From Salinivirgaceae bacterium (lineage in GTDB: Bacteria; Bacteroidota; Bacteroidia; Bacteroidales; SZUA-534), in NCBI GenBank assembly GCA_024405635.1, contig JAKSOL010000034.1:1-14170 (forward strand): a stretch of DNA of 14,170 nucleotides, in the 5' to 3' direction. The notes below the pieces were generated by a model. The model did no database searches and had not been told where the DNA came from. It saw only the letters and a program-made list of their open reading frames with translations. The translations under genes were made by a program, and so were the position numbers. Below, one piece after another: positions 1 through 14,170 of the stretch (position 1 is its first letter; every line of letters begins with the position of its first letter).

Positions 1-113
1 GCAGCGGCGTAATAACCATTGAAGGCAACGACCTAAAAGCTGGCATGTACCTTTACTCGCTTTTGGTTAACGACCAACTAATTGACACCAAACGCATGGT
101 GCTAACTTTCTAA
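1..113 (+). CDS. 3' end of a protein with a T9SS type A C-terminal sorting domain (partial, runs off the left edge)
   Basis: Not in the ORF track. Frame 3 reads SGVITIEGNDLKAGMYLYSLLVNDQLIDTKRMVLTF then TAA (111-113). The L-x-x-G-x-Y motif and terminal TKRMVL match the T9SS type A CTD pattern. Confidence 0.8.
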   Translation, partial: SGVITIEGNDLKAGMYLYSLLVNDQLIDTKRMVLTF

Positions 114-126
114 TATTGTGAGAAGT

Positions 127-2247
127 ATGAGAAAGATTTTGACAATTATGTGCTTGCTTGGTGTCTTTTTGCACCAACAAAGTGCATTTGCAGAGTATGA
201 TATTTCGTTTTATCAAAACGATAACCGTTGTACGTACTATGCTCATTTTGAATTACCAAACTTCACAATTGCTGATACTAGCCTTTATGCTTTGGATAGT
301 AATGGAGAAGCTACTAATGCAATATTGTATTCAACCATTTGTGGACTCGATAGCATGACGTGGCTTTGTTTAAAAAGTGGAACTCCATCGCTGCCATGTT
401 ACACTATAACTCTGCCAATAACAAAAGACGCAAGCAATTTTGAATTGACAAGAATACTTGAACGAGGCGATAGCATTAAATCGTTGGTTCTGTCACGGCA
501 ATTGTATCCCGAAGGTTATCCCGATGTTCAACCCAACAATGATTATTACAATTGTGACGAAAATATTGTAATACAACCATTTGTGGTTGATACATTTACA
601 ACATACGGATTAGACGGCGTAACAATAGCAATTTGTCCATTTGCGTATATCCCCAAAAGCAATAAGTTGTACTATCAGCCAGTTATTGATTTTCAATTCT
701 CATTTGCTACTTCAACAGAACAATTTGGAACAAACGAAGAAGTTGATGCCGAAGCGTATGAACATATCAAATCGCTATTTGATTGTTTCCCAAGTAGAGG
801 AGCAAAAGGACAACCCGAAGAGATGGATGCCTTAATAAATCTATTTTCATTTATTGCGCATTTAGCTACAAATACATACACTTTGGCTGGTCATCATTGT
901 CCTTATGTGTCTTGTGTTGAAGAATATAGATATAGTACAAATGCAGAACATACAGAAAACCGTGACACAAAGATTTTGGTAGTTAGCCACAAGAAGTATG
1001 TACAAAAAATGAAGGACTACACAATGTATAAACGATATCAAGGTTATACTGTAGGTCTTGTTAAAGTGGATAGTATTAAAAAGGAAAATCTATACTCTTA
1101 TTTAAGAGCATTGTACTCGAAAGGCATCGCTCCAAAATATGTATTATTGGTAGGTAATGAAAATGAAGTTGAATGTTTTGGCGACAAATCAGGTGATGAC
1201 CCGCATGACCCACCAACCGATTTTCCCTTTTGTTATTCAGGCGACTATTCTGGACATACCGATTACCATATAGGTAGGTTCTTTCCAAGTGATTCAGTTG
1301 ATAACATCATTTATCAAACAATGTGTTCAGAGCAGAACTATACAAACCTTGATAGGTGCGTACTAAAAGTAACAGGTGTTGGAAATGCTATGTGGTTTGG
1401 ACATTTTCTTCTGAAAAATGTAGAATTTCATGGTGTAGAAGAACACCATTGTGATAGACAGAGTGAATCTGTATTTAAAGAATACATAGGCAAAGAACCT
1501 TATTGGCTTCTATTATACAATGGGCATGGTAATGATGATGGTAATTGCCCTGCAAAAGGATTAGATGCAGAATATGAAGATTGGCACAATGAACAAGTAG
1601 AACCAACTAATACACTATTTCCAATAATGTTTTTTCAAGCTTGTAAGAATGGGAGTTACAAAAGTGAAGGATTTGGAGTAAATTCGCAGAATAATATATG
1701 TTCTGCATTTATTGGAGCATCAACAAACACAGGTGCTCGATGGGGACAAATGATAATAAACAAAGCTTTTGATAACGGAGATAAAACATCGTGGAAAAAA
1801 AAAGAGAGACTTGGTGATTTCCTCGACCATGCTAAGATGTATGCTTTTGAGAGCAAAAAGAAAAATAAAAACAAAAATTCAAAAATATTAGTATGGGTAA
1901 CAGGTAAAATGGAAGATTGGGGCTGGATAGATGCAGGATTGGATGATGATAATTTATCAAATAACAAAGATGGAGTAAAACGATTCAACCTATTTGGCGA
2001 CCCATCATTATTATACCGCGGAATGTCGTTTGAAAATCTTACATTTGAAACGGAGAATTGGTATAGCATTCTATATTATAGAGCCAAAACCATTAGTACT
2101 GGCGATAACACAAAAGTAACTTGCAAACCAAAATCTGATGTCAAATTAGTTGCTAGCGAAAAAATATCATTAAAACCTGGCTTTAAAGTTGAAAAAGGAG
2201 CGACATTTAAAGCAGAAATTGTAAAACAATATGATTATGAAAAATAA
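127..2247 (+). CDS. Secreted gingipain-like cysteine peptidase (family C25, clan CD) with N-terminal prodomain and a small C-terminal beta domain
   Basis: Signal peptide MRKILTIMCLLGVFLHQQSAFA (ATG 127 preferred to GTG 118). Propeptide-like ICPFAYIPKSNKL. C25 motifs KYVLLVG, TDFPF, HIGRF, YNGHG (His codon 1525-1527), FQACKNG (Cys codon 1642-1644) and NLFGDPSL. Ends with ISLKPGFKVEKGATFKAEI. Confidence 0.85.
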   Translation: MRKILTIMCLLGVFLHQQSAFAEYDISFYQNDNRCTYYAHFELPNFTIADTSLYALDSNGEATNAILYSTICGLDSMTWLCLKSGTPSLPCYTITLPITKDASNFELTRILERGDSIKSLVLSRQLYPEGYPDVQPNNDYYNCDENIVIQPFVVDTFTTYGLDGVTIAICPFAYIPKSNKLYYQPVIDFQFSFATSTEQFGTNEEVDAEAYEHIKSLFDCFPSRGAKGQPEEMDALINLFSFIAHLATNTYTLAGHHCPYVSCVEEYRYSTNAEHTENRDTKILVVSHKKYVQKMKDYTMYKRYQGYTVGLVKVDSIKKENLYSYLRALYSKGIAPKYVLLVGNENEVECFGDKSGDDPHDPPTDFPFCYSGDYSGHTDYHIGRFFPSDSVDNIIYQTMCSEQNYTNLDRCVLKVTGVGNAMWFGHFLLKNVEFHGVEEHHCDRQSESVFKEYIGKEPYWLLLYNGHGNDDGNCPAKGLDAEYEDWHNEQVEPTNTLFPIMFFQACKNGSYKSEGFGVNSQNNICSAFIGASTNTGARWGQMIINKAFDNGDKTSWKKKERLGDFLDHAKMYAFESKKKNKNKNSKILVWVTGKMEDWGWIDAGLDDDNLSNNKDGVKRFNLFGDPSLLYRGMSFENLTFETENWYSILYYRAKTISTGDNTKVTCKPKSDVKLVASEKISLKPGFKVEKGATFKAEIVKQYDYEK
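1975..2004 (+). repeat. Repeat A copy 1 (encodes VKRFNLFGDP)
   Basis: gtaaaacgattcaacctatttggcgaccca matches 2834-2863 at 27/30 nt. All three differences are synonymous. Confidence 0.95.
2164..2214 (+). repeat. Repeat B copy 1 (encodes ISLKPGFKVEKGATFKA)
   Basis: Matches 3032-3082 at 44/51 nt and 16/17 aa. Confidence 0.95.
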
Positions 2248-2752
2248 AACTCTTATATCACTTTTTTTATTGTGTTCAATTCTTCTTTGTGGGTGTTGGC
2301 ATTCTCACGATGATTACGATTTCGAAGAAGAAATGCGTTTTTTTCCATATGTGGATAATTCTAAACTAAAAATGACCAACGAGAAAGACTCTACTATAAT
2401 TATTGTTGAATGCGCAGATGCAAGTATTGGTTGCGACAAACGTACTTCAATATTTTTCACTTCTCGAACATCCAAACCTTTGTTAAAAAACGGAGTAGAT
2501 AAAGAAGTTGGCAGATTGAGGTTAAAATTGCGTTTTACAAAAAAAGAATTGCAGTCTATTTCTCTTGAATATTTAGATTTTAAATTTAGGTATCGAAAAA
2601 ATGAAAATGAAGAAATTTTATCTAAAATAGATTTAAAGAGAGATACTGTAGTATTTCCTTTTAGTGGGTGTATGGATTTAGTCTTTGCTAAAGACAAAGG
2701 TTTACAAGAAATAAGAACATTTGATGGTAATATTTGGACTCTAATAGAATAA
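2237..2752 (+). CDS. Hypothetical lipoprotein 1, overlapping the peptidase stop (candidate cognate inhibitor or partner)
   Basis: MKNKTLISLFLLCSILLCGC is an SPII-type signal ending in Cys. The start (ATG 2237, alternatively 2231) overlaps the last codons of the C25 gene. Paralogous to 3130-3639. Confidence 0.8.
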   Translation: MKNKTLISLFLLCSILLCGCWHSHDDYDFEEEMRFFPYVDNSKLKMTNEKDSTIIIVECADASIGCDKRTSIFFTSRTSKPLLKNGVDKEVGRLRLKLRFTKKELQSISLEYLDFKFRYRKNENEEILSKIDLKRDTVVFPFSGCMDLVFAKDKGLQEIRTFDGNIWTLIE

Positions 2753-2784
2753 TAACCCCCACACAACTTTACTTATACCCACTC

Positions 2785-2823
2785 AACCCCAGCAACCGAG
2801 CTAAATTCAGTTGTTGGGGTTTT
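2785..2823 (+). terminator. Intrinsic terminator-like hairpin 1 (repeat of hairpin 2)
   Basis: aaccccagcaaccga-gctaaat-tcagttgttggggtt followed by a T-rich stretch, about 30 nt after the lipoprotein 1 stop. Confidence 0.7.
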
Positions 2824-2833
2824 GTATTTGGAG

Positions 2834-2863
2834 GTAAAACGTTTCAATTTATTTGGCGACCCA
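2834..2863 (+). repeat. Repeat A copy 2
   Basis: gtaaaacgtttcaatttatttggcgaccca, 27/30 nt to 1975-2004. Confidence 0.95.
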
Positions 2864-3031
2864 AGTATGGTTACCAAAGGTTATAATATAAAAACGCTTA
2901 AATTTGCTACAAGCGAAAACATTAATGTTGGTAACATTTATTATAAGGTGATTAATACAATAGACACCAACAATGAAAAAATTGTAGTTGATAGCAAAAA
3001 CTCAAAACTGACATTTATTGCTGGCAATAGC

Positions 3032-3082
3032 ATATCATTAAAGCCTGGCTTTAAGGTTGAAAGTGGTGCAACGTTTAAAGCA
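3032..3082 (+). repeat. Repeat B copy 2
   Basis: atatcattaaagcctggctttaaggttgaaagtggtgcaacgtttaaagca, 44/51 nt to 2164-2214. Confidence 0.95.
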
Positions 3083-3129
3083 ACCATTGATCCTTCAATA
3101 ACTAACGTTGAAATTGAATATTAAGGAAT

Positions 3130-3639
3130 ATGAAGAAAAAAATCTTAATACTATTTGCCCTTTTAGGAATAATAATGTGTTCTTGTCTCAAAGAATATCC
3201 ACCATCTGAAATACCAGAAAAATACTCGCAATTCTTCCCTTATTATTATGGACAAAAAGTTTTGTTCAAGAGATCTACGGATACTGTTGTAGTGGAATTT
3301 TTTCTTTTCAACCAAATTAAGAAAGAATGTCATGGGGACGGATGGTATGTAAATATTAATGGAGATGTACAATGGATAAACAATGTAAATAAAGAAAAAA
3401 AACAATATTATAGGGCATACTTAAATTTTAAATACTGGGACAACAAAGACGTTGGGTATTTTGATATTGATTATAGTGGTGGTGACAATGTAAAATTACA
3501 AGACACCATTATTTTACTACGAGGCAATAATAAAAATAATGGATATGCTATTTTTGTCAAAAATAAAGGTTTAGTTGAAATAAAATATCCTGCAGATCAT
3601 TATTATTGTCCAAATGAAATTATGACACTAATAGAATAA
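3130..3639 (+). CDS. Hypothetical lipoprotein 2, paralog of lipoprotein 1
   Basis: MKKKILILFALLGIIMCSC is an SPII-type signal. Shares FFPY, F-x-K-x-KGL-x-EI and terminal TLIE* with lipoprotein 1. The last 12 nt (ctaatagaataa) are identical. Starts 5 nt after the orphan stop. Confidence 0.82.
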   Translation: MKKKILILFALLGIIMCSCLKEYPPSEIPEKYSQFFPYYYGQKVLFKRSTDTVVVEFFLFNQIKKECHGDGWYVNINGDVQWINNVNKEKKQYYRAYLNFKYWDNKDVGYFDIDYSGGDNVKLQDTIILLRGNNKNNGYAIFVKNKGLVEIKYPADHYYCPNEIMTLIE

Positions 3640-3664
3640 CCATCCCAATTTTGCATTAAAACTT

Positions 3665-3706
3665 AAACCGCCAGCAACCGTACCCATTCAGTTGTTGGCG
3701 GTTTTT
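3665..3706. terminator. Intrinsic terminator hairpin 2, possibly bidirectional, between convergent genes
   Basis: aaaccgccagcaac...gttgttggcggttttt lies between the lipoprotein 2 stop (3639) and the dGTPase stop (3726). Confidence 0.8.
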
Positions 3707-3725
3707 GTTTGAGGAAAGCCGTTTT

Positions 3726-5072
3726 TTAAATAACAAGTGAGTTGTGGTCGCCTTTAATAAAGCGGTAAAGGTCCATTGCGTAAAGGTCGGTCATGCCCGA
3801 AATAAAGTCGATTATTGAGCGAGCTTGGTCATATACCGAACCATCGTTCTTTTTGTACTGGTCGGGAACAAGTTGAAGTAGTTTTTCGGAGTAGCCCGAT
3901 TCTGGATTGAGCGAGGCGCCTAAAAATTCCTCCACAAGCGTTTTAAGCACGTTGTAGCCAGTTATTTCAACCTCAACCACCGAACGGTTGTTGTATATTT
4001 TTTTCTTCGATAAAAGCCCGCTATCTTCAACCGATTGGTTAACTAACTCTGGCAAGTGTTTGGTAAGCGCACCACTAAACGAACCATTCATAATGGCGTT
4101 GTAGTTGTTAAGAAAAACTTCTGATGAGCGAATGGTAAGATGATTTATGGCCGATGCTCGTAAAAAGGCAATTTGTTCGTTCTCGTCGGTTACAACGTTT
4201 GAAATTTGCTGCAGTTTAGTGAGCAGTTTGCGGCGGTTGTCGCCATCAAAAAAACTAATCAATATGTCGGTAGTTTCTTGTTTCGACAAGATGCCAAGTT
4301 TGTGAGCATCTTCAATGTCCATAATTAGATAAGCAATGTCGTCGGCTGCTTCAACTAAATAAGCAAGTGGGTTGCGAGCATACACATCGTTTGCGGCATC
4401 AATGGCTGTTAGTCCAGTTTGTTGAACTACTGATAAAAAATGTTCGCGCTCCGATTGAAAGAAACCATACTTGTTTTTTTTGGTTCGTTGAGTTGAGGGA
4501 AATGGATATTTTATCATGGCCGAAAGGCAAGCGTAGGTCATTGAAAAACCGCCTGTTCGGCGACCATTAAATTGGTGAGTAAGCAAACGTAAAAGGTTTG
4601 CATTGCCCTCAAAGTTAGTCAAATCAAGCCATTGAGCCTCAGTCATTTGGTTGCGTAGTTCAATGCCTTTGCCGTTTTCAAAGTAGTTCGATATGGCGTT
4701 TTCGCCCGAGTGTCCAAACGGAGGATTGCCAAGGTCGTGAGTTAAGCAAGCTACCGATACAATGGTGCCAAGTTCGTCAATAAGTGGGCGTATTTTTTCG
4801 GGCTCGTTGCTTTTAATGTCGCGCGCCACAATATTGCCAAGCGAACGGCCAATGCTTGCTACCTCAAGACTGTGGGTGAGGCGGTTGTGTACAAACACAC
4901 TTCCAGGCAACGGAAAAACTTGTGTTTTGTTTTGCAGCCTGCGAAAAGGCGAACTAAAAATAATGCGGTCGTAATCGCGTTGAAATTCGGAACGGATTAT
5001 TTCAAGGTCTAGTTCCTTTTCGGGTTTGTCTTTGCCAAAGCGGCGCGACGATAATAGTTGTTCCCACTCCAT
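3726..5072 (-). CDS. dgt: Deoxyguanosinetriphosphate triphosphohydrolase (dGTPase, HD superfamily)
   Basis: Motifs FQRDYDRIIFSSPFRRLQNKTQVF, HNRLTHSLEV, HDLGNPPFGHSGE, FEGNAN, EAADDIAY and DFISGMTDLYA. Confidence 0.95.
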   Translation of the reverse strand: MEWEQLLSSRRFGKDKPEKELDLEIIRSEFQRDYDRIIFSSPFRRLQNKTQVFPLPGSVFVHNRLTHSLEVASIGRSLGNIVARDIKSNEPEKIRPLIDELGTIVSVACLTHDLGNPPFGHSGENAISNYFENGKGIELRNQMTEAQWLDLTNFEGNANLLRLLTHQFNGRRTGGFSMTYACLSAMIKYPFPSTQRTKKNKYGFFQSEREHFLSVVQQTGLTAIDAANDVYARNPLAYLVEAADDIAYLIMDIEDAHKLGILSKQETTDILISFFDGDNRRKLLTKLQQISNVVTDENEQIAFLRASAINHLTIRSSEVFLNNYNAIMNGSFSGALTKHLPELVNQSVEDSGLLSKKKIYNNRSVVEVEITGYNVLKTLVEEFLGASLNPESGYSEKLLQLVPDQYKKNDGSVYDQARSIIDFISGMTDLYAMDLYRFIKGDHNSLVI

Positions 5073-5683
5073 TAGTCTAATTCATTTTGTAAGGTTTTTC
5101 GCTGAAAAAGCAACAGATAAAACATTCCGCAGGTTATGGCAGAGTCGGCAAAGTTGAATATTGGGCGGAAAAATATAAACTCTTCGGTAGGGCGAAATGG
5201 CGACCAAGCTGGCCAATGAGCCTGAATGATTGGAAAGTAGAACATATCGACAACTCGGCCTTGCAAGAAACTAGAATAGCCTGTTCCCCAAGGCACAAAT
5301 TGAGCAATGTTGTAAAGGCTTGAGTCGAAAATCATGCCATACAAAGCGCAGTCGATAAGGTTGCCTGCAGCGCCAGCAAGAACAACCGATACTGCTACAA
5401 TATAACCTGTTGGCATATTACGTTTAACTAGTCGGTAAAGGTAGTAGCTAAGGGCGGCAATGGCCACAATGCGAAACGAGCTGAGCAAATATTTGCCCAC
5501 AACGCCAAAAAACTGAATACCGAAGGCCATGCCGTTGTTTTCGGTAAAATGAATAATGAACCAATTGCCAAGCACGTGTATTTCTTGGCCAAGCATCATG
5601 TGGGTTTTAATCCAAATTTTAATAATCTGGTCGATGGCCAGAATTAAAACAACAATCAGAATAGGCAGTTTACCTTTGTTCAT
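5072..5683 (-). CDS. lspA: Lipoprotein signal peptidase (signal peptidase II)
   Basis: DQIIK, NNGMAFG, GAAGNLID, GRVVDM and FNFAD motifs, with several hydrophobic segments. The stop overlaps the dgt start by 1 nt (TAATG). Confidence 0.95.
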   Translation of the reverse strand: MNKGKLPILIVVLILAIDQIIKIWIKTHMMLGQEIHVLGNWFIIHFTENNGMAFGIQFFGVVGKYLLSSFRIVAIAALSYYLYRLVKRNMPTGYIVAVSVVLAGAAGNLIDCALYGMIFDSSLYNIAQFVPWGTGYSSFLQGRVVDMFYFPIIQAHWPAWSPFRPTEEFIFFRPIFNFADSAITCGMFYLLLFQRKTLQNELD

Positions 5684-5696
5684 ATTGTAATTGTAA

Positions 5697-5739
5697 AACA
5701 GCCGTAAAACACCACAGTTTAGGGCATTTTACGGCTGTT
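5697..5739 (-). terminator. Stem-loop between the DksA-family gene and lspA (weak terminator or mRNA stabiliser)
   Basis: Perfect 13-bp inverted repeat aacagccgtaaaa / ttttacggctgtt with a 17-nt loop and only a short U run. Confidence 0.55.
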
Positions 5740-5758
5740 GATTTTTGTTAGTAGTAAA

Positions 5759-6148
5759 TTACTTTTTTTGGTTCAGTTTAGCCTCAACGCTCAAAGTAGC
5801 GTGTGGAACAGCACGAAGTCGTTCTTTTGGAATCAATTTGCCAGTTTCGCGGCAAATGCCGTAGGTTTTATTTTCGATGCGAATTAAAGCGGCTTGCAAG
5901 TTTTGAATAAACTTTTCTTGGCGTTGGGCCAATTTGCCGGTTTCTTCGCGCGACAAAACATTTGCACCTTCTTCCAACACTTTAAAGGTTGGCGACGTGT
6001 CGAGTGTGTCGTTGCCGTCTTGGTGAGCAAGTGTGTTTTTAAGAGTGATGTACTCTTTTTTTGCTTGTTCAATTTTGGCCAGAATTAATTGTTTAAATTC
6101 TTCCAATTCCTCATCAGAGTATCTGGTTTTTGTTTGTTCTTCATTCAT
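5759..6148 (-). CDS. TraR/DksA family transcriptional regulator (Bacteroidota type)
   Basis: Coiled coil followed by ALIRIENKTYGICRETGKLIPKERLRAVPHATLS. It lies directly upstream of lspA, as is usual in Bacteroidota. Confidence 0.92.
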   Translation of the reverse strand: MNEEQTKTRYSDEELEEFKQLILAKIEQAKKEYITLKNTLAHQDGNDTLDTSPTFKVLEEGANVLSREETGKLAQRQEKFIQNLQAALIRIENKTYGICRETGKLIPKERLRAVPHATLSVEAKLNQKK

Positions 6149-6252
6149 GGTTTCAGATGTTTTTTGTGGTGCGTAAAAATATGTTTTTTGATTTTTTACG
6201 AACTAAAGGCTGAGTTATAATATACAATACTTATGAACACTTGGCGAATTTG

Positions 6253-6283
6253 AAAAGCTAAGTTGAGCAAGGCTTGTTACAAA
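6253..6283 (-). promoter_or_regulatory. Candidate Bacteroidota sigma-A promoter for the dksA-like/lspA/dgt operon
   Basis: The minus strand reads TTTG-N19-TAGCTTTT, against a consensus of TTTG-N19-21-TAnnTTTG (one mismatch). Confidence 0.35.
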
Positions 6284-6316
6284 AAAACCGCCTTACAAAG
6301 GCTGCAAGGCGGTTTT
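6281..6316 (-). terminator. Intrinsic terminator after the M16 peptidase
   Basis: aaaaccgcctt...aaggcggtttt stem with A7 on the + strand (U7 on the - strand), about 25 nt after the stop. Confidence 0.85.
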
Positions 6317-6341
6317 AATTATTTTAAGTAAGCAACAAGTG

Positions 6342-9167
6342 TTATTCGGCTTTTGGCATCATAACAACTTCAACAACGTTGCCAGCATCAACAAGTTTTT
6401 GCAAAGTTGCGCGTACAGTTTCGGCAGTTACTTTTTTCACTTCGTCGATGTACTTGCCAGCGTAGTCAAAGCCTTCAACAAAGAAAATCTTCATATAAAT
6501 AAGCCAAGCATCGTTGTCTTCAAGCGAAACTTCAAATTGTTTTTGGTAACCTTCAAGTGTTTTTTGAAGGTCGTCGGCGCGTGGTCCATCTTTCAAAATG
6601 GTTTGAATTTCGTCGTGAATAATTGCCAACAAGCGAGTTTCTTTTTCAGGATCGGTGTCAAATACCATGCGGAGCATAGCTTGGTTGTTAAACGAAGGGA
6701 AAAGATTGAAGTTGCTGCTTGTGCTAACTCCGTACGAACCACCTTCGCGTTCGCGAATGCTTTCCAAGTAACGAAGATCAAGAATGTCGGCAATGGTGCT
6801 AAGGTTAAGCAAGTTTGCAAAGTTTTGCTCAAATGTAGCAGAGTAAACTATTACGTTAGTTGCCGTTTTGGTTTCCATTTGACGATTAAAGGTGTTGTTT
6901 ATTTTGCCTGAAGCGATAGGAGTTTTTGGATCAACAGGTTTTTCAAGTTTTTTGGTTCGAGGCAAACCGCCAATCCATGTGCAAATTTGTTTTTGAGTTT
7001 CAGGATCGTCAGGATTAATGTTACCAACAAACATGAATGTAAAGTCGGCAGCATTGGCAAAACGCTCTTTGTAAATTTCGATTGCTCGTTTTTGGTTAAG
7101 CAATTTTAATTTGTCGATAGTTATTATGCTCGATTCGATGCGAGCGTTGTGGTTGTAAAGAGTAGCGTAAAGGCTGTCGGTTAATTCGGCACGGGGATTA
7201 GCGTTGCGGTTAGCAAGCGACGATTCGGCCATTTGAATAAACGAAGAATACAAGTCGTCGTCGGTGCGTGGCGCGGTAAAGTATAGGTAGTTAAGTTGCA
7301 ACATGGTTTCAAAATCCTTAACCGATGAGCCACCGTAAATACCTTCGGTTAGTTCGTCGATTGAAGGATAAGCCGATGCTACTTTACCAGCCAATATTTT
7401 TTTCAATTTGGTTGGTGTGAAGTTTCCTACACCATTGTTTTTTACAACATCGCATGCAAGATTGGCATTAACCAAATCGGTTGTGTTATACAAAGCGGTG
7501 CCACCAAAACTGATTGACTGCATAAGTATTTGGTCGTTTTTGTTGGTGGTTGGTTTAATAACAACGCGAGCGCCGTTGCTCAATAGCCACTCGGTGGTTC
7601 CGTATTGTGGGTTTTTAGTAGTTTTTTTAATCTTTCCTGCTTTTGGAGTTTTTGCAACCAAAGGTTCGTCAATCACCTCTTCTTTTGGAGCTTCAATTTC
7701 CATTACCATCACCTCGGCAATAATTTGTTTAACCTCCTCATCTGAAGGTATTTGCACTTTGTCGTTTTCGGGCAATTGCATACCAACAATCATATTCTTG
7801 TTGCTAAAGAACATGGATGGAGTTAGTTGGTTTATTTCGTCGGCCGAAATTTGAGACAACAAGCCTTTAAGGAAATCGTATTCCCAAGCTATGCCTGGAA
7901 TAGGTTCAGCGTCGGTAAAGTTTCTTTGGTACTCGTCGGTAAACGCGCCTGTTTCGCAATTGTTGCGTTCGTTGTAAGCTTTTTCAATTGATGCTAAAAT
8001 GTTGGCACGAGCAATTTCGAGTTCCGAAGTGGTGATGCCGTAACGGCGAAGTCGCTCACCCTCAATAAGCAAGGCTTTTAGTGCCTCTTTTTCTTGTCCT
8101 TCTTTGGCAGTTGACGATAATTCAAACTCGTCTTCGATGCAGAATTGAGTGCCTTTGTAAGCATTGGCATAAACAAAAGGAGATTCTGGTTTTTGAGTCA
8201 ACTCTCTCAAACGATTGTTCATCACTTGATTAACAATTCGGTTTACGGTTGAAAATAAGTAACCAATGTTACTGTTACGAATTTCGGCAGGTAGTTGGTC
8301 TAAAGTGTTAACTACAAACACTTCAGAAGTGCGAGCTTCTTTGTCGGAAACAATGGCAACTCGTGGTTCGTCGTGGCGAGCAACACCAAAATAAGGGCGC
8401 TCACCGCGATTTACGCGTGCTGGAACAGTGTCCCAATATTGTTTAATTTTTTCAACCATTTGATCGGCATCAATGTCGCCAACTACAATAATGCCTTGCA
8501 AATCGGGTCCGTACCATTTTTTGTAATAGTCGCGCAAAGCTTGATGCTCAAAGTTTACAATAACGTTTGTGTCGCCAATAATGTCGCGAGTAGAGTATTT
8601 TGAGTCAAAAAAAGCTTTTGCAATAAAGCCCATCGATAGGCGCCAACTTGCGGTGCGGCGAGTACGCCACTCTTCGCGAATAACGCCACGTTCGGCATCA
8701 ATTTCTTCGGGCAATAGGTTAAGGTTGCACGACCAGTCGAGCAGCACCATTAAAGCCGAGTCGGTTACTTGTGTGCGTGTTGTTGGTACATTTTGTAGGT
8801 AATAAACTGTGCGGTCCCACGATGTGTAGGCGTTAATGTCGGCGCCAAAGGTTACGCCGTTTGAGTTAAAGTAGTTTATAATGCCTTTGTCAGGAAAGTG
8901 TTTTGTACCATTAAAAGCCATGTGTTCCAAAAAGTGAGCAAGGCCGTTTTGGTTGTCTTCTTCAAGAATAGAGCCTACTTTTTGAACAATGCGGAATTCG
9001 GCACGTTGTTTTGGGTATTCGTTGTGACGTACGTAGTAGGTTAGTCCGTTGGCAAGTTGGCCAACTCTAACTGCTGTGTCAACTGGCAATGGTTGAGGCA
9101 TCATTTGAGCCTTGGCTGTAGTGGCTAGCATAGCAAGCATCAGCATAGCCGAAAAAGTTCGTTTCAT
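6342..9167 (-). CDS. M16 family zinc metallopeptidase (PqqL-like, exported)
   Basis: Signal peptide ending AKA/Q, LANGLTYY, the inverted zinc motif HFLEH, NAYTS, ERGVIREE and IREREGGSYG. 941 aa. Confidence 0.95.
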   Translation of the reverse strand: MKRTFSAMLMLAMLATTAKAQMMPQPLPVDTAVRVGQLANGLTYYVRHNEYPKQRAEFRIVQKVGSILEEDNQNGLAHFLEHMAFNGTKHFPDKGIINYFNSNGVTFGADINAYTSWDRTVYYLQNVPTTRTQVTDSALMVLLDWSCNLNLLPEEIDAERGVIREEWRTRRTASWRLSMGFIAKAFFDSKYSTRDIIGDTNVIVNFEHQALRDYYKKWYGPDLQGIIVVGDIDADQMVEKIKQYWDTVPARVNRGERPYFGVARHDEPRVAIVSDKEARTSEVFVVNTLDQLPAEIRNSNIGYLFSTVNRIVNQVMNNRLRELTQKPESPFVYANAYKGTQFCIEDEFELSSTAKEGQEKEALKALLIEGERLRRYGITTSELEIARANILASIEKAYNERNNCETGAFTDEYQRNFTDAEPIPGIAWEYDFLKGLLSQISADEINQLTPSMFFSNKNMIVGMQLPENDKVQIPSDEEVKQIIAEVMVMEIEAPKEEVIDEPLVAKTPKAGKIKKTTKNPQYGTTEWLLSNGARVVIKPTTNKNDQILMQSISFGGTALYNTTDLVNANLACDVVKNNGVGNFTPTKLKKILAGKVASAYPSIDELTEGIYGGSSVKDFETMLQLNYLYFTAPRTDDDLYSSFIQMAESSLANRNANPRAELTDSLYATLYNHNARIESSIITIDKLKLLNQKRAIEIYKERFANAADFTFMFVGNINPDDPETQKQICTWIGGLPRTKKLEKPVDPKTPIASGKINNTFNRQMETKTATNVIVYSATFEQNFANLLNLSTIADILDLRYLESIREREGGSYGVSTSSNFNLFPSFNNQAMLRMVFDTDPEKETRLLAIIHDEIQTILKDGPRADDLQKTLEGYQKQFEVSLEDNDAWLIYMKIFFVEGFDYAGKYIDEVKKVTAETVRATLQKLVDAGNVVEVVMMPKAE

Positions 9168-9243
9168 ATTGTTTTTAGATTTAGTTTTTATCGTTTCTAT
9201 AGACGCAGAAGAATTTAGTTTGCTACACTTTTTTCGAAAAAAA

Positions 9244-10155
9244 TTATTGCATGTAACTGGCTTGTATGAATTGTAATTGCTGCATCAACATTTTGGTTTT
9301 TTTCATATCGAATCCAACTTGAAAAGAGGTGTTTATAGGTTCGGCATAAATGGCTTGAATTTCCATTTGGCGGTGGTTGTCAAAGTCGAGCCTCATGCTT
9401 GGCAAGTAGGGTTTCATTTGGTCGGTGTTGTGCATCATTTTGTCGGCAAAGTCGGGCTTTATGTTGCAACCGCAAGCGTTGGCCGCTGCAATGGTTTCGC
9501 ACATAAGGTCGTAAACCAAGGTGTGGGTGTAAGTGTTTTGCATCAGTTGGTCGGTGGTGGTGTTTAAAGCCACGCATAAACCGTTGAATGGAATATTCCA
9601 AACCAATTTTTTCCAACGAGCCTTATTAAGGTCGGGGGTTATTTCGGTTTCGATGCCAGCATTTTGCAAGTCGGAGCTAAGTTGCTGCATATCGTTGGTT
9701 TGACCGCGGAAAATGCCAAGGGTGAGTTTGCCATAGTCAAGGTGACGAATGTGCCCAGCTCCTATTTTGTTGCTACAAATAAATGCCATTGCTCCCACAA
9801 TGTTTTGTGTAGCAAAATGTTGTGCAACTATTTGCTCTTGGTTTAGCCCGTTTTGTATTAAAACAATGGTTGAGTTTTGGTTTACAATTGGAGCAAGCAA
9901 TTGTGGTAAAAGGTGGTTTTGTGTGGTTTTTAGGCACACAAGCACAACATCGCACTTGGGCATTTGCTTGGCATCGGAGTATGCATTTACATTGTTGAGG
10001 CTAAAGTTGCCAAGAACCGATTCTATTTGTAAACCGTTGGTTTTAACGTGATTATAATCGGTGTGAAATAGAAAATGTACTTCAGCTCCTGACTGAACCA
10101 ACTTGCTACCGTAGAATAGTCCTATGGCACCAGCGCCAACAATAGCATATTTCAT
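9244..10155 (-). CDS. panE: 2-dehydropantoate 2-reductase (ketopantoate reductase) family protein
   Basis: Start reassigned to ATG 10155 (MKYAIVGAGAIG, Rossmann motif). Also CLKT, QNG, WKKLVWN, PSMRLD and a conserved Glu (ME). Confidence 0.88.
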   Translation of the reverse strand: MKYAIVGAGAIGLFYGSKLVQSGAEVHFLFHTDYNHVKTNGLQIESVLGNFSLNNVNAYSDAKQMPKCDVVLVCLKTTQNHLLPQLLAPIVNQNSTIVLIQNGLNQEQIVAQHFATQNIVGAMAFICSNKIGAGHIRHLDYGKLTLGIFRGQTNDMQQLSSDLQNAGIETEITPDLNKARWKKLVWNIPFNGLCVALNTTTDQLMQNTYTHTLVYDLMCETIAAANACGCNIKPDFADKMMHNTDQMKPYLPSMRLDFDNHRQMEIQAIYAEPINTSFQVGFDMKKTKMLMQQLQFIQASYMQ

Positions 10156-10160
10156 AAGTT

Positions 10161-11498
10161 TTATTTTAGCAGTTTTTGTATTTCGGGCTGATTGAACAAT
10201 GGAGCCCAAAGAGCCTCGGCTGCATATTGTTTAGCTTGTTTAAAGCCCATTTGAACAGCTTTTTGGTAGTTAGCAACCATGTCGGTGCGGTTGTTTACCA
10301 AAAGGTTGTAACGAGCTTTCATAAGGTAAACATCAGAGTTGTTTGGGTCAACAATTTCGTAAACAGCTATTTTCTTTTCGGCTTTTTCGGCCTCTTCGTT
10401 CATAATATTGTTGCTAGCAAGCGAAAAAGCTGCCATGCTCAAATAAGCTTTAAGGCGGTGGCTGGTAAGCGATACTTGCAAGTCGGTGCTATTAATGCTT
10501 TTGTTAAAGTTTTCAATCTCGGTGCGCCACCAATCAAGGTCGCGTGTGTCAAACGAGCTTATGAATTTGCTACGTAGCTGAATTTCTTTTGTAGCAAGAT
10601 TTTGGATTTGGCGTAATTGTTGAGCATATTTTGGGTCGGCATAAAGAGCAGTTACATAACTAGCCATACCGTTGTCAGACATAAGTGAGCCAAACATGCT
10701 TTCGGTGCGGTTAACTAGTTCAGCAGCAGCAATTTGGTCGCCAGCTGCTAGTGCATCAGTAATGGCATTGCATTGAGTGTCGTAAAGGTTTTGCAACCAA
10801 TTTTGGTCAACATCTTTTTTACCATATCGCATGGCGTTTACTTCAATAGGTTCAATGGCTTTTTCAAAATCTTCGGTCGATGGCCATTGGTGTTTTCCGC
10901 TGAAAACAACTAGCGAGTAATCAATATCGAATTGGCTAAATGCTGCAATGGTTTGTTTCATTTCAAGGTAGTTAAAGTCTTTGTCGCCAACCATACCTAC
11001 AAAGCAGAAGGTGGAGTCGGGTTCAACTTGAGGAATTGAACCAGCACCGCAAGCCACTACACCGCTAATAACAGGATTGCCAACACCATAAAGAGTAGCT
11101 AATTTGGCACCGCCCGAAAAGCCAGCTAAGTAAATGCGGTTAGGGTCGGCATTAAGTTGCTTGGTAGCCTCGTTAAGCAAAGCTGCAACAATGTCGCCTA
11201 CACTGCCAGCCGATAAACCATTGTGCAAGTCGTTGCTACCCATAAGCATATAGCCATATTTGTCGGCCAATGGTGCGTAATTTTCAACTGGGGTTTTGCC
11301 ATCGCAGTGCGAGTCGAAAAAGATAATGATAGGCAAGTTGCCGCTAGCTTTGGCAGGTTGATAAAAGGTGTACGATACATTGTTTTTTTCGGCACAAGTG
11401 TTTTGTTGCACTTTGCCCGATAGTTTCACTTTGTCGCTATTACAAGCTGTAAGCATGGTAAGAGTTGCTACAGCAATTGCTAGAATTTGCTTTCTCAT
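10161..11498 (-). CDS. Lipoprotein with an alpha/beta-hydrolase (esterase-like) domain and a helical/TPR-like C-terminus
   Basis: Lipobox LTAC. RIYLAGFSGG is a GxSxG nucleophile elbow, with candidate Asp (GDKDF) and His (GKHQWP). The C-terminal DPNNSDVYLMKARY...YQKAVQMGF is TPR-like. Confidence 0.8.
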   Translation of the reverse strand: MRKQILAIAVATLTMLTACNSDKVKLSGKVQQNTCAEKNNVSYTFYQPAKASGNLPIIIFFDSHCDGKTPVENYAPLADKYGYMLMGSNDLHNGLSAGSVGDIVAALLNEATKQLNADPNRIYLAGFSGGAKLATLYGVGNPVISGVVACGAGSIPQVEPDSTFCFVGMVGDKDFNYLEMKQTIAAFSQFDIDYSLVVFSGKHQWPSTEDFEKAIEPIEVNAMRYGKKDVDQNWLQNLYDTQCNAITDALAAGDQIAAAELVNRTESMFGSLMSDNGMASYVTALYADPKYAQQLRQIQNLATKEIQLRSKFISSFDTRDLDWWRTEIENFNKSINSTDLQVSLTSHRLKAYLSMAAFSLASNNIMNEEAEKAEKKIAVYEIVDPNNSDVYLMKARYNLLVNNRTDMVANYQKAVQMGFKQAKQYAAEALWAPLFNQPEIQKLLK

Positions 11499-11532
11499 AT
11501 TTTGAAATAATTAGTAACGGTTTAATAAAACG

Positions 11533-11542
11533 TGCGAATATA
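11533..11542 (-). promoter_or_regulatory. Candidate -7 promoter element for the hydrolase/panE operon
   Basis: The minus strand reads TATATTCGCA, one mismatch from TAnnTTTG, about 35 nt upstream of the ATG. Confidence 0.35.
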
Positions 11543-11837
11543 GATTTTTTAAGCGACAGGACGAGGTTTTTAGTTGTTTGATTATTGCTAACGATTAAAT
11601 CTACAGCCTTGTTGTTTAATGGCACTACTTAGTTGTGCTGTCTGTATTTTACAAAAACCTATTTGCTCCACACACCCAAGTAGTTTGTAAACAATCAAAT
11701 AATAAGATGTTTAATAACAAAAAACTGAATATGAGTACGTTGTTTGCCTATAAAAGCAAACGCAGTTTTTTGTTTTTCTGCTTTTTCAAGTTCAGTGTGG
11801 TTGGTTTTGGGTTGTATATAAAGTATAATGATATGAT

Positions 11838-11874
11838 AAACAAAAATCCCCAACCTGAAACCAGATTGGGGATT
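11838..11874 (-). terminator. Intrinsic terminator after ddh
   Basis: The minus strand reads aatccccaatctg-gttt-caggttggggatt-tttgttt. The single non-Watson-Crick pair is U-G on the minus strand only. Confidence 0.85.
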
Positions 11875-11898
11875 AGAACATTCAATAATCAAAATTCT

Positions 11899-12801
11899 TT
11901 ATACCAAGTGGCGAATCAACTCCTCGCGGTCGCCATAAAGCATATCAATAACAGGTATTTCAACCATTGTGTAAGCACCTGGTTTTTGTTTCATTGCAGC
12001 ACGAGCCACATTAACCAAAACTTGTGCAGTAAGAGCTGGGTTGTTAATCTTCATGTTAAACTCAAACAATTGGTTGTGAGTTTTACCTGACACACCTTTG
12101 CGCACAAGGTTAACACCATGGCCAACATCGTTAAGTGCATCAACACTCTCAACTTGCATTACGTGAGTTTCGTCGCTTGCAAAATATGGGTCAGCTTTAA
12201 TTGCTTTTGTAACCTCAGCAAGGTCAGCACCCTCTTCCAACTCTACATAAACCATACGGCGGTGAATACCCTCGCCCAATGGAATAGTCATTGAAAGAGC
12301 ATCTTTAACACCCTCTTTTGAACGTACACAAACCGAGTGGCCCATTGAACGGCCTGGACCAAAATTGGTATAACTCAAACCTTTTGGAGCAAGACTCTCC
12401 ATCAAAGTACGTACAATTGAGTCTGATCCTGGATCCCAACCAGCTGAAATAATTGACACTGCATTGTTCTTTTTTGCAACAGCATCAAGCGAACGACGCA
12501 AATCAATAATTTGTGTGTGAATATCAAAACTGTCAACAGTATTAATACCAAGTTCAAGGCACTCTTTTGCATAAACCTCAACACTGCGAGTTGGAGTTGC
12601 AAGAATAGCAACGTCAACATCTTTCAACTCTTTTATCGATTTTACCACTTCGTAGTTTGCCAACTCGGCTGGTTTATTTTCAGCACCATTACGGCGAACA
12701 ACACCTGCTATTTCAAAATCGGGTGCAGTTTGCAATGCATCCATCACGTAGCGGCCAATATTTCCATAGCCCACCACTGCTGCTCTTAATTTCTTTTCCA
12801 T
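11899..12801 (-). CDS. ddh: meso-diaminopimelate D-dehydrogenase
   Basis: VGYGNIG, NTVDSFDIH, AGWDPGSDS, TNFGPGRSMGHS, HRRMVY, GHGV and NNPALTAQ. Confidence 0.95.
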   Translation of the reverse strand: MEKKLRAAVVGYGNIGRYVMDALQTAPDFEIAGVVRRNGAENKPAELANYEVVKSIKELKDVDVAILATPTRSVEVYAKECLELGINTVDSFDIHTQIIDLRRSLDAVAKKNNAVSIISAGWDPGSDSIVRTLMESLAPKGLSYTNFGPGRSMGHSVCVRSKEGVKDALSMTIPLGEGIHRRMVYVELEEGADLAEVTKAIKADPYFASDETHVMQVESVDALNDVGHGVNLVRKGVSGKTHNQLFEFNMKINNPALTAQVLVNVARAAMKQKPGAYTMVEIPVIDMLYGDREELIRHLV

Positions 12802-13009
12802 ATATTTCTTCGTTAAATTTTTACTGCAACAAAGAAAAATAGAAGATTTTCAACCTGCAAAGCAAAATGCCTTTTTGCCATAACGATACGAAACACACGT
12901 ATTTTCTTTAAAAGATTAAAGTTGATATAACTAACTATCAGACTTTTATAAATCACTTGCAAAAGTTTACACATACTATTTAAATGCAAATAGCACTCAA
13001 AGCATTTTT

Positions 13010-13042
13010 TTTGCAATAATGTTACACTTATAGATATTTTTG
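13010..13042 (+). promoter_or_regulatory. Bacteroidota sigma-A promoter for the polyprenyl synthetase gene
   Basis: TTTG (13010-13013), N21, TATTTTTG (13035-13042) is a full consensus match, 21 nt upstream of ATG 13064. Confidence 0.6.
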
Positions 13043-13063
13043 GGGAAAATAAACTATAGTACG

Positions 13064-14038
13064 ATGTCCGATTTGCAAACCATTAGAAAACCCGTTGCTA
13101 CCGAACTCGAAAAATTTCAGCCATATTTCAGCAATTTTCTAAAAAGCAACTCTAAGTTGCTCAATATCATTATATTCTACTTGCTGAAACAAAAAGGCAA
13201 ACAAATTCGTCCTCTACTGGTTTTCTTAAGTGCTAAAATGTTTGGCACAGTTTGCGACAAAACATACCAAGCTGCCGCCTTTATTGAAATGATGCACACT
13301 GCATCGCTTGTTCACGACGACGTGGTTGATGAATCAGACATGCGCCGCGGTTTTTGGTCAATCAATGCAATTTGGAAAAACAAAGCATCGGTTTTGCTTG
13401 GCGACTTTTTATTAGCCAAAGGTTTACTATTAGCTGTCGATAACCAAGGTTACGATTTGCTTCAAATAGTATCGCAAGCCGTTGAAGAGATGAGCGAAGG
13501 CGAATTGCTACAAATGGAAAAAGCACGCCACCTAAACATAACTGAACAAGATTATTACCAAATAATTCGCCAAAAAACTGCTGCTCTTATGGTAGCATGC
13601 ACCAAAGCTGGAGCTTGTTCAGTTGGAGCATCGGAGTCTGATATGCAAAAGATGGCCGACCTTGGCGATTGTATGGGCAAAGCCTTTCAAATTCGCGACG
13701 ATCTTTTTGATTATGATGCTTCTGCACAATCGGGCAAACCTGTTGGCAACGACATTATTGAGCGCAAAATGACACTGCCTCTTATTTACTCGCTAAACAA
13801 TTGTTCCAAATCTGACCGACGACATATTATTAAACTGATGCGCAAAAAGCAAAAATCGCCTACCGATGTACAACAAGTTATTGATTTTGTAATGGCGCAC
13901 AATGGTGTTGAATACGCTCGTCAACAAATGAAAAACCTTTCAGACAAAGCACTGCAAATATTAGCAACCTTGCCACAAAACGAGGCAAACCAATCGTTGG
14001 TTGACATTGTGTCCTACATTGTCGATCGTAAAAAATAA
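13064..14038 (+). CDS. ispB: Polyprenyl (octaprenyl-type) diphosphate synthase
   Basis: GKQIRP, HTASLVHDDVVDESDMRRG (FARM), GDFLL, KTA, FQIRDDLFD (SARM) and GKPVGND. ATG 13064 is preferred because TTG 13040 lies inside the -7 element. Confidence 0.9.
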   Translation: MSDLQTIRKPVATELEKFQPYFSNFLKSNSKLLNIIIFYLLKQKGKQIRPLLVFLSAKMFGTVCDKTYQAAAFIEMMHTASLVHDDVVDESDMRRGFWSINAIWKNKASVLLGDFLLAKGLLLAVDNQGYDLLQIVSQAVEEMSEGELLQMEKARHLNITEQDYYQIIRQKTAALMVACTKAGACSVGASESDMQKMADLGDCMGKAFQIRDDLFDYDASAQSGKPVGNDIIERKMTLPLIYSLNNCSKSDRRHIIKLMRKKQKSPTDVQQVIDFVMAHNGVEYARQQMKNLSDKALQILATLPQNEANQSLVDIVSYIVDRKK

Positions 14039-14170
14039 ATCTTACCATAGTTCTGTATCAACAACACAGCAACAATTGGCTTAAAAAGTTCACTACTTTT
14101 TTAAGCTAACATATCATTATTAACGCGAGTTCGATATAAGCAAATAAGCAAATCAGTAAAATAGAACAAG

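Follow-up and report, generated by a model that had tools for sequence, protein, structure and literature searches.

Why should the gene of a secreted peptidase be followed by a further copy of its own 3′ end? This question is raised by the first part of a 14,170-nt stretch of DNA from a Salinivirgaceae bacterium (order Bacteroidales; GenBank assembly GCA_024405635.1, contig JAKSOL010000034.1, positions 1 to 14,170 of the forward strand; hereafter, the window). Here, a gingipain-like C25 cysteine peptidase gene is followed by a lipoprotein gene and a terminator-like hairpin, and then by a second peptidase C-terminal domain, lipoprotein gene, and hairpin, this time without a catalytic domain. 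The 3′ ends of such operons form modules that have conserved borders and a mosaic sequence, are under selection at the protein level, and occur in expressed as well as orphan positions. The locus combines a protease-plus-lipoprotein-partner operon with orphan-cassette arrays, each a kind of arrangement that is known separately. No account of arrayed peptidase 3′ ends accompanied by lipoproteins turned up in the literature searched (subscription journals not covered), in keeping with the original prediction, made from the sequence alone, which knew of no such arrays for C25 peptidases.

Organization of the Tandem Modules

The peptidase gene (127..2247, + strand) starts at ATG 127, with an alternative GTG at 118, and encodes a protein of 706 aa. 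Its terminal part, tail 1 (1975..2247, +), is fused to the C25 catalytic domain; it begins with VKRFNLFGDPS, which in alignment with the gingipain structure 1cvr is the motif at the end of the catalytic domain, and continues into a 3-coathanger stack domain, as recognized by the NCBIfam model NF045639. The gene for lipoprotein 1 (2237..2752, +; 171 aa, C-terminal IWTLIE; alternative ATG at 2231) overlaps the peptidase stop codon with its start, and this open reading frame (ORF) encodes a signal peptide and a lipobox Cys at residue 20. Terminator-like hairpin 1 (2785..2821, +) consists of CCCCAGCAAC...GTTGTTGGGG and a T-run, and has a fold energy of -22.2 kcal/mol (z -3.7, relative to shuffled sequence).

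Directly after this T-run, the junction TATTTGGAGGTAAAACG leads into RFNLFGDPS and the remainder of orphan tail 2 (2822..3124, +), again with a 3-coathanger stack domain. The frame of this tail, which reads LYLEVKRFNLFGDPS..., is open and contains neither a catalytic domain nor a signal peptide. The second module is completed by lipoprotein 2 (3130..3639, +; 169 aa, C-terminal IMTLIE), an ORF likewise with a signal peptide and a lipobox Cys, and by hairpin 2 (3665..3706, +), an inverted repeat homologous to hairpin 1 (fold energy -27.1 kcal/mol, z -5.6). Both hairpins fold far better than shuffled sequences. The array in the window stops at hairpin 2, and similarity is lost right after its T-run.

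The two modules are direct repeats in register, at a spacing of 859–887 nt, with 92 nt at 74% identity, 30 nt at 90% identity over the VKRFNLFGDPS codons, and further matches over the lipoprotein C-terminus and the hairpin. At the protein level, the tails share 41 of 85 residues (48%, E 2e-23); the lipoproteins match significantly only at their N-termini (18 of 56 residues identical, E 2e-6), match again at the C-terminal KGLxEI...TLIE, and are 22% identical over their mature parts. The original prediction had described two tandem modules, of which only the first is fused to a catalytic domain, each with a lipoprotein of about 170 aa ending in TLIE, and this description is borne out in all its parts, with a C25 domain (PF01364, E 1.7e-15) on module 1 and none on module 2. 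The repetition of the module is far beyond chance: the same module occurs on four further contigs of the genome.

Copies of the Module Across the Genome

Profiles of the tails and lipoproteins were searched across the genome (2.66 Mb, 36 contigs, among which the window contig is designated C28). Tails fused to C25 catalytic domains number three, on C28, C33, and C26 (the last cut by the contig start), and seven orphan tails are distributed over four loci, with one on C28, three on C33, two on C34, and one on C26. This distribution supports the earlier view of a repeated cassette architecture rather than a one-off deletion. In addition, a tail remnant of ∼17 codons (SGFKVEKGVKFKAVIKN) lies directly before a solitary lipoprotein gene at C36:55966-56570. 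Ten complete lipoprotein genes occur in the genome, in at least four loci, together with a C-terminal lipoprotein fragment at the end of C10. A more distant relative, a 212-aa member of the same family (C26:4916-5551, minus strand; E 9e-16), stands ∼2.5 kb beyond the C26 array.

The borders of these modules are conserved. All ten complete lipoprotein genes, as well as the C10 fragment, end in a sequence resembling ...TGGACNCTAATAGAATAA, and each is followed by a conserved 3′ element of ∼75 nt that includes the hairpin. At internal junctions, the T-run of this element runs into TATTTGGAGGTAAAAC(AAAG)GTTCAAYYTATTTGGNGAYCC, which is the orphan start; in the last module of an array, similarity ends right after the T-run. 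Alignment of the DNA shows that five intact orphans have one common junction, consisting of the terminator T-run followed by LYLEVK(Q)RFNLFGDPS, and that the junction of tail 2 is shared with C33 and C34. Orphans had been predicted to start repeatedly near NLFGDP, which holds for these five and for C33_4o (the same protein start, frameshifted and then followed by an insertion sequence, or IS, element). It does not hold for C26_2o (a shorter start, with the hairpin abutting FNLLGD), the C36 remnant, or an orphan in another genome (G295, described below), each of which has a different breakpoint. Since contig ends fall inside several loci (the start of C26, the ends of C34, C33, and C10, and the start of the window), the true arrays may be longer than observed.

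The IS element on C33 (C33:127700-129249) encodes a DDE transposase and extends from C33_4o to the contig end, and the lipoprotein C-terminus and hairpin at C10:60446-60541 may represent its other side. At its end, C34 overlaps by ∼55 nt with the ends of four other contigs, one of them the end of the window. Two further accounts of the junctions were considered and set aside. Read-through from the preceding lipoprotein into the orphan tail finds agreeing frames at two of four junctions, and stop codons intervene. Integron-like cassettes are at odds with the hairpins, which look like plain terminators with T-runs, and no recombinase, mobile-element gene, or invertible promoter was seen in the window (a result for the window, not for the whole genome).

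Selection, Mosaicism, and Exchange of Modules

Among pairs of orphan tails, the proportion of synonymous differences (pS) is 0.72–0.78, which is saturated, and the proportion of nonsynonymous differences (pN) is 0.24–0.27, with no stop codon over ∼85 codons. This pattern indicates that intact orphan tails are kept under purifying selection.

The modules are also mosaic. When compared in 60-nt windows, C33_1F and C33_3o are 90–98% identical throughout the tail and into the beginning of the lipoprotein gene, fall abruptly to ∼45% in the lipoprotein center, and return to 80–95% at the 3′ end; more generally, the best-matching partner of a module switches segment by segment. A similar alternation is found in the peptidase itself, where the related protein P0155 is 93–100% identical to the window C25 protein over the first 240 aa, 35–70% over much of the catalytic part, and 84–88% in the tail. 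The original prediction had taken the tail as the main variable part. Instead, the tail belongs to a conserved and known domain family, with identities of 35–94% among copies and a nearly invariant C-terminal half (GFKVEKGATFKA; ISLKPGFKVEKGATFKA), and the fastest-changing parts, judging from these alignments, are the lipoprotein center (the most variable) and, between assemblies, the catalytic domain.

Several observations connect expressed and orphan positions. Of 90 residues compared, 84 (93%) are the same in the C33_2o orphan tail and at the C-terminal end of P0156, which is a C25 protein of full length (732 aa) in another assembly, so that an orphan tail is found fused to a full C25 gene elsewhere. 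In the opposite direction, the first 43 aa of P0163, a 67-aa orphan-sized ORF from another assembly, are exactly those of tail 1. In samples X4 and X5, tail 1 stands next to an orphan-type junction in 161-nt Logan contigs, with a single mismatch in 126 and 96 nt; these contigs, which are short and have a depth of 3–4, are suggestive of tail 1 in an orphan context. At the level of DNA, full genes and orphans have identical runs of 26–28 nt at the FNLFGDPS codons, and non-adjacent orphan junctions have identical runs of 29–44 nt. Lengths of 26–44 nt are close to the minimum for efficient homologous recombination, and therefore fit occasional rather than programmed exchange. A candidate replacement of module 2 in run X2, with positions 2959-3480 uncovered and a loose end at 2886 that resembles a P0159-type tail, was not used as evidence, because the shared junction allows a paralogous origin and a gap in contig cover proves nothing.

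The C25 Peptidase and Its 3-Coathanger Stack Domain

The window peptidase comprises a signal peptide, a prodomain-like N-terminal domain (∼aa 20–194), a catalytic domain (∼aa 280–631), and the tail. The PF01364 match to the catalytic domain scores 57.6 bits (cut-off 23), and a profile of eight relatives matches gingipain R (1cvr, residues 7–348) at E 2.4e-28. The catalytic dyad is present, with His467 in the motif GHG (1525-1527) and Cys506 in the motif QAC (1642-1644), and both His467 and the Cys after the invariant Ala505 are kept in the C25 proteins of the window, C33, and C26. In profile comparisons, the prodomain-like region matches the gingipain prodomains 5mun (Kgp, E 1e-4) and 4ief_A (RgpB, E 7.6e-3), and Pfam Propeptide_C25 has no match in this protein. 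Fold matches to RgpB (Z 10.4), Kgp (Z 10.2), and the Kgp prodomain (Z 9.8) were obtained from a poor model (pLDDT 43.3). The terminus of the catalytic domain, ...RFNLFGDPS, aligns with the ...FGDPSLLVRT that ends the catalytic domain of RgpB.

Overall, the protein resembles the gingipains RgpB and Kgp (1cvr, 4ief, 4rbm, 5mun) in having a prodomain-like N-terminal domain, a C25 domain with a His/Cys dyad, and a beta domain after ...FGDPS. It differs from them in that the 3-coathanger stack replaces the Ig-like domain, in the absence of hemagglutinin/adhesin domains and of a type IX secretion system (T9SS) C-terminal domain (CTD), and in a very divergent sequence, for which the Pfam E-value of the C25 match is only 1.7e-15. 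The T9SS CTD (Por_Secre_tail / TIGR04183) had no match at E ≤ 1 in the C25 proteins of the window and C33, whereas it is present in relatives from the genomes G295, G254, G050, and G048. No toxin family was matched (Pfam, NCBIfam). In one of the relatives (G254:C13, L051:1147-3387), a Phe occupies the position of the catalytic Cys (...SFAFNS, compared with ...FQACKN); this peptidase may be inactive, or the alignment may be off.

The post-catalytic remainder of the window C25 protein amounts to 87 residues, and these form the coathanger domain (NF045639, "3-coathanger stack," GCX_COOH). The model scores 33.1 bits for tail 1 (match at 2128-2220) and 50.1 bits for tail 2, relative to a cut-off of 26, which is exceeded in 10 of the 11 matches in the genome. 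No paper on the "coathanger stack" was found in the literature searched, with the same coverage as above. The tail sits at the position of the gingipain Ig-like domain and is probably a structural domain there rather than an effector, with no toxin-like activity indicated. Tail 1 is 82% identical to the C26 orphan tail. An M6 metalloprotease of 613 aa (HEMFH; C22:20477-22315, L057:678-2516, minus strand) also ends in a 3-coathanger stack, and its gene is followed by that of a 191-aa protein with a weak match to the T9SS sorting domain, which is not a member of the lipoprotein family.

The Lipoprotein Family

All ten complete lipoproteins have a signal peptide and an invariant lipobox Cys. In three of them, K-(D/E)2 directly follows this Cys, a motif that is described as a Bacteroidetes surface export signal (PMC5080379). 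No Pfam or NCBIfam model matches the family. The AF2 model of lipoprotein 1 is an all-beta barrel (pLDDT 69.7), for which a fold search returned only generic barrels (best Z 7.2) and Foldseek returned none at E ≤ 0.001; the lipoprotein profile matched chains of the Protein Data Bank (E ≤ 1) only over the signal peptide. The family is large: when 1.84 billion representatives were searched with a profile of 28 members, 1887 clusters matched at E ≤ 0.001, of which 500 reached E ≤ 1e-10. Nearly all of the 150 family clusters listed are ∼160–240 aa in length (exceptions, 111 and 259 aa), only two of ten looked up carry a name, in both cases "hypothetical protein," and the ESM Atlas neighbors of the lipoprotein are unnamed Bacteroidota clusters. 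The second gene of the C25 operon thus encodes a fast-evolving beta-barrel lipoprotein, which is probably surface-exposed.

Lipoprotein 2 is 52% identical to the lipoprotein that follows the first C34 orphan, and 68% identical to P0002 from another assembly, with which it shares its first 53 aa exactly before the remainder diverges. As a single query, it matched none of 40 related genomes, including none of the 24 from the same family. We analyzed the phylogeny of the genome's lipoproteins, which fall in three separate supported clades according to FastTree. In IQ-TREE, a single clade of the ten lipoproteins and six close relatives from other assemblies, chosen after the tree had been inspected, was not rejected (p-AU 0.48), and given this value multiple origins of the copies are not claimed. 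A clade restricted to the genome's own lipoproteins was rejected (p-AU 2.5e-29), which is trivial because relatives from other strains nest inside it. The Bacteroidetes -7 promoter motif, TAnnTTTG, has no conserved position 5′ of the lipoprotein starts.

Related Loci in Other Genomes

In other genomes of the order, 11 loci with full-length relatives of the lipoprotein were compared, and in 5 of them the lipoprotein immediately follows a T9SS-CTD protein; these neighbors are two C25 peptidases (G295, G254), one M12-type metallopeptidase (G271), and two proteins in which no peptidase domain was found, such that the neighbor is a T9SS peptidase in 3 of the 11. At the G295 locus, which belongs to another family of the order, an independent orphan is present (G295:C1, L049:7439-9098), composed of the last ∼64 codons of the C25 gene (part of the CTD) and a second lipoprotein gene. 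Nucleotide identity between the copies is 84–97% in the gene fragment, 44–57% in the lipoprotein center, and 82–88% at the lipoprotein end, and pN/pS for the lipoprotein pair is 0.70 in the center and 0.18 at the C-terminus. Around the M12-type T9SS metallopeptidase of G271 (G271:C7, L046:5964-13317) stand nine consecutive signal-peptide/lipoprotein genes (156–210 aa), two of which belong to the family studied here.

The tail profile matched 28 of 401 genomes, the window's own included. Outside the window genome, all 37 tail matches lie in open frames of 285–2485 aa; within that genome, the frame is 122 aa or less for 7 of 10 matches. From these frame lengths, no lineage but this one yielded orphan-tail arrays in the set of genomes searched. 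Seven further tail-bearing loci (L059-L065; G050, G048, G268, G188, G228, G052, G034) contain three C25 peptidases, three trypsin-like peptidases, one S8 subtilase, and one unassigned CTD protein, and at none of these seven was a family lipoprotein found at E ≤ 0.01. Each of the three trypsin-like (S1) genes is followed by an unrelated small lipoprotein-like ORF. On this comparison of sequences, T9SS peptidases of different catalytic classes commonly have the coathanger module between the catalytic domain and the CTD. Searches with the tail alignment gave 216 pattern matches in genome contigs and 418 in metagenome contigs, none of which was confirmed, with records close to the window's genome possibly excluded from both searches.

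Possible Function of the Lipoprotein and Its Orphan Copies

A precedent for a secreted peptidase with a lipoprotein partner is found in Tannerella forsythia, where the KLIKK peptidases share transcripts with potempins. These are beta-barrel lipoproteins of the outer membrane, which inhibit the peptidase they are linked to and guard the surface of the cell itself. Potempins have signal peptides that are nearly identical and mature parts that diverge strongly, and small orphan lipoproteins are noted in the same study (PMC9890683). The potempin principle is so far described as unique to T. forsythia. The locus studied here is similar in that a small secreted lipoprotein forms a tight two-gene unit with a peptidase, and in that orphan lipoproteins occur; in outline, its lipoproteins match the potempin description. 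By this analogy, we favor interpreting it as a protease/inhibitor locus of the KLIKK-peptidase/potempin kind with recombining orphan cassettes, an interpretation for which we regard the case as evenly balanced when taken as a whole. Its parts differ in strength: the architecture and the exchange of modules are very probably as described, and the role of the lipoprotein as an inhibitor is plausible, though somewhat more likely to be wrong than right.

The operon is followed by orphan copies of its own 3′ end, each with the last peptidase domain, the lipoprotein gene, and the terminator, and the module borders are the RFNLFGDPS codons at the edge of the catalytic domain and the lipoprotein C-terminus with its terminator. 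Modules would be shifted by homologous recombination at the FNLFGDPS and lipoprotein-end/terminator borders, within and between strains, such that an incoming 3′ end would replace or displace the resident one, and the orphans would serve as both a record and a reservoir. The lipoprotein would bind the co-encoded peptidase, most likely as an inhibitor that is anchored in the outer membrane and shields the surface of its own cell, and its hypervariable center may represent contact loops that track the mosaic catalytic domain, both by analogy with potempins. Orphan lipoproteins may add protection against variant peptidases of related strains. A partner role for the lipoprotein is suggested by the overlap with the C25 stop codon, the T9SS-CTD neighbors in other genomes, the G295 orphan, and the surface export signal.

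A number of observations weigh against this interpretation. Lacking a T9SS CTD, the window C25 protein may never come into contact with an inhibitor on the outer surface. No sequence or fold match to a potempin or another known inhibitor was obtained by profile, Foldseek, or structure search, and no potempin (PotA-E; OB-fold or eight-stranded up-and-down barrel) is listed among the best fold matches of the lipoprotein 1 model, which has a pLDDT of 69.7. The gene order is the reverse of that of the potempins, with the lipoprotein downstream of the peptidase. In 6 of the 11 loci of other genomes, the lipoprotein relative is not adjacent to any peptidase or T9SS-CTD neighbor, and three further C25 loci with a coathanger tail have no family lipoprotein. 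Damage is seen in two of the seven orphan tails (a frameshift in C33_4o and a lost start in C26_2o), and the C36 copy keeps only ∼17 tail codons, both of which fit hitch-hiking of the tail with the lipoprotein gene; the signal of purifying selection may also date from a time when the tails were part of full genes. Finally, exchange between positions is known from protein records and short, low-depth metagenome contigs rather than from contiguous loci, and no recombinant was seen within one population.

Other differences from the potempin system are the size of the lipoproteins (156–217 aa here, compared with 98–132 aa for mature potempins), the C25 peptidases without a T9SS CTD, and the arrays of peptidase 3′ fragments, which are not mentioned for potempins in the available part of the source (PMC9890683). 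The coathanger-type module, which is found here in C25, trypsin-like, S8, and M6 peptidases, invites a further comparison. KLIKK peptidases of disparate classes have a similar C-terminal extension.

If the potempin-like interpretation is correct, the orphan-cassette logic of contact-dependent toxins would extend to a secreted protease with a lipoprotein partner, a large unnamed family of Bacteroidota lipoproteins would gain a testable function, and the potempin principle would be widespread among T9SS peptidases of several catalytic classes. One genome with three peptidases and ten lipoproteins is also a natural panel for protease-inhibitor specificity. Should the interpretation fail, this would still be a clear case of a peptidase locus diversified by recombination.

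A bolder extension, which we consider unlikely, is that the locus is a protease/anti-protease counterpart, in gut Bacteroidota, of polymorphic toxin-immunity systems, in which strain-specific secreted C25 peptidases with mosaic catalytic domains would be directed at the surfaces of rival strains, and hypervariable outer-membrane lipoproteins would be the shields that match them. Orphan shields and donor peptidase 3′ ends would then be collected as an acquired defense, and orphans would re-arm the cell's own gene by recombination at the FNLFGDPS border; the lipoprotein family of ∼1900 clusters would, in that case, be a large unrecognized class of surface peptidase inhibitors. Acquired interbacterial defense arrays are linked to recombinases or mobile elements. 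Those of gut Bacteroidales contain rapidly evolving orphan immunity genes against effectors of the type VI secretion system, and can protect against effectors that the cell does not make (PMC12247911, PMC10470768). Unlike such arrays, those studied here stand at peptidase loci, with no recombinase nearby as far as the window shows, and their protective role is hypothetical.

Alternative Explanations

The arrangement also resembles that of the CdiA, Rhs, and MafB systems, in which an intact gene precedes 5′-truncated duplicates of its own 3′ end and a small gene is linked to each of them; the orphans of these systems begin at a conserved domain-border motif and match full-length gene ends of other strains. 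Here, too, 5′-truncated 3′-end copies begin at a conserved motif and are each accompanied by a linked small gene, and orphans match full-length gene ends from other assemblies. The differences concern the nature of the parts: the exchanged C-terminus is one conserved structural domain family (NF045639) rather than a variety of toxins, the linked gene encodes an exported lipoprotein rather than a cytoplasmic or periplasmic immunity protein, and there is no strict co-variation of C-terminus and partner, the variable parts being the lipoprotein and the catalytic domain. The analogy drawn in the original prediction thus stands for the orphan layout, and not for a toxin C-terminus or strict cognate pairing.

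An explanation closer to that prediction is that the tail is the variable unit and is paired with a cognate lipoprotein, as are the C-terminus and immunity protein in contact-dependent inhibition and Rhs systems; for example, the lipoprotein could be an anchor or receptor that docks the CTD-less peptidase via its tail. Such a peptidase would have to gain or keep its place on the surface by some other route. In every case, tail and lipoprotein stand side by side and have been duplicated as a pair, the last tail codons precede even the solitary C36 lipoprotein, and the identities of tails and lipoproteins are correlated among nine modules (Mantel r 0.50, p 0.011). However, linkage alone would produce this correlation, and tail and lipoprotein are not congruent: tails of 82% identity accompany lipoproteins of 23%, tails of 94% accompany lipoproteins of 44%, and a tail of 100% (P0158) accompanies a lipoprotein of 68% (P0002), the last two proteins both being listed with a longest contig of 74,209 nt from another assembly. 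With its nearly invariant C-terminal half, the tail cannot encode much specificity, and the same domain occurs before the CTD in other peptidase classes at the seven loci without a detected family lipoprotein. Cognate pairing of the tail is accordingly doubtful in our view.

By-products of duplication offer another account, to which we assign a similarly low probability. The lipoprotein gene would be duplicated and selected, and would drag along the upstream 3′ end of the peptidase gene because its own start region lies there; the tails would be functionless and no switching would occur. The lengths of the remnants vary in a way that suits this account, from a full tail in six orphans to the shorter C26_2o, the ∼17 codons on C36, and the ∼64 CTD codons in G295, and the 3′ end of the tail is highly conserved in DNA next to every lipoprotein start, with damage in two of the seven tails as described above. 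It is harder to reconcile with five orphan tails that remain open over ∼85 codons despite saturated synonymous sites, with pN about a third of pS. The same tails are, moreover, fused to full genes elsewhere, and the reverse, and the sharp steps in identity are unlike divergence in place.

It is improbable that the surface lipoprotein undergoes antigenic or receptor variation under pressure from host antibodies or phage, unrelated to control of the peptidase and with a C25 linkage that is historical. Such variation would account for a hypervariable lipoprotein center between conserved ends, a surface export signal in three of the ten lipoproteins, and the many family members that stand alone, and the runs that hold the window sequence are recorded as animal gut and faeces metagenomes. 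Yet the copies all have one orientation and their own terminators, with no invertible promoter or recombinase seen in the window, so that several lipoproteins would be expressed simultaneously rather than singly, and the start/stop overlap with the peptidase gene favors a functional link.

An assembly artifact, in the form of a collapsed or chimeric repeat in this metagenome-assembled genome, has a negligible probability despite the 36 contigs and the several contig ends inside loci: Logan contigs of run X1, from a second assembler, tile positions 113-5200 of the window with 0 differences, and a 102-nt contig among them bridges the 3′ end of lipoprotein 1 into tail 2 (2778-2879), which removes the misassembly concern of the original prediction as far as the assembler goes (X1 may be the window's own source sample, and its agreement checks the assembler only), while the modules are too different to be collapsed copies (tails 48%, lipoproteins 22%) and related proteins exist in other assemblies.

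Neighboring Genes

Upstream of the C25 gene, the window begins with the 3′ end of a gene that is truncated by the contig start (3..113, +; protein terminus ...VITIEGNDLKAGMYLYSLLVNDQLIDTKRMVLTF*). This gene is a paralog of one (L023:47-1060) whose 338-aa product combines a Peptidase_S74 (endosialidase chaperone) domain (PF13884, E 5e-15) with a T9SS sorting domain of type A (TIGR04183, 29.1 bits, cut-off 23), and the same S74 gene end also occurs on contigs C16, C22, and C33. At least four copies of the gene with the S74 and T9SS type A sorting domains (window 3-113, L023:47-1060, L058:1456-2520, and L057, at the C22 end) are located upstream of secreted peptidases that have no CTD; the peptidases directly 3′ of S74 genes are two C25 peptidases and the M6 metalloprotease. 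In G295, the situation is reversed, with a C25 protein that has a CTD and an S74 protein in which none was detected. The S74 protein and the CTD-less C25 peptidase may form a complex that shares one export signal, a lead that comes from two lineages.

Downstream, a convergent gene (3726-5072) encodes an HD-domain, dGTPase-like protein (Pfam HD and HD_assoc). The window from 3726 to 14170 consists of chromosomal housekeeping genes, which in addition to this protein include signal peptidase II, a DksA/TraR zinc finger protein, an M16 peptidase, ketopantoate reductase, a diaminopimelate dehydrogenase-like protein, and polyprenyl synthetase.

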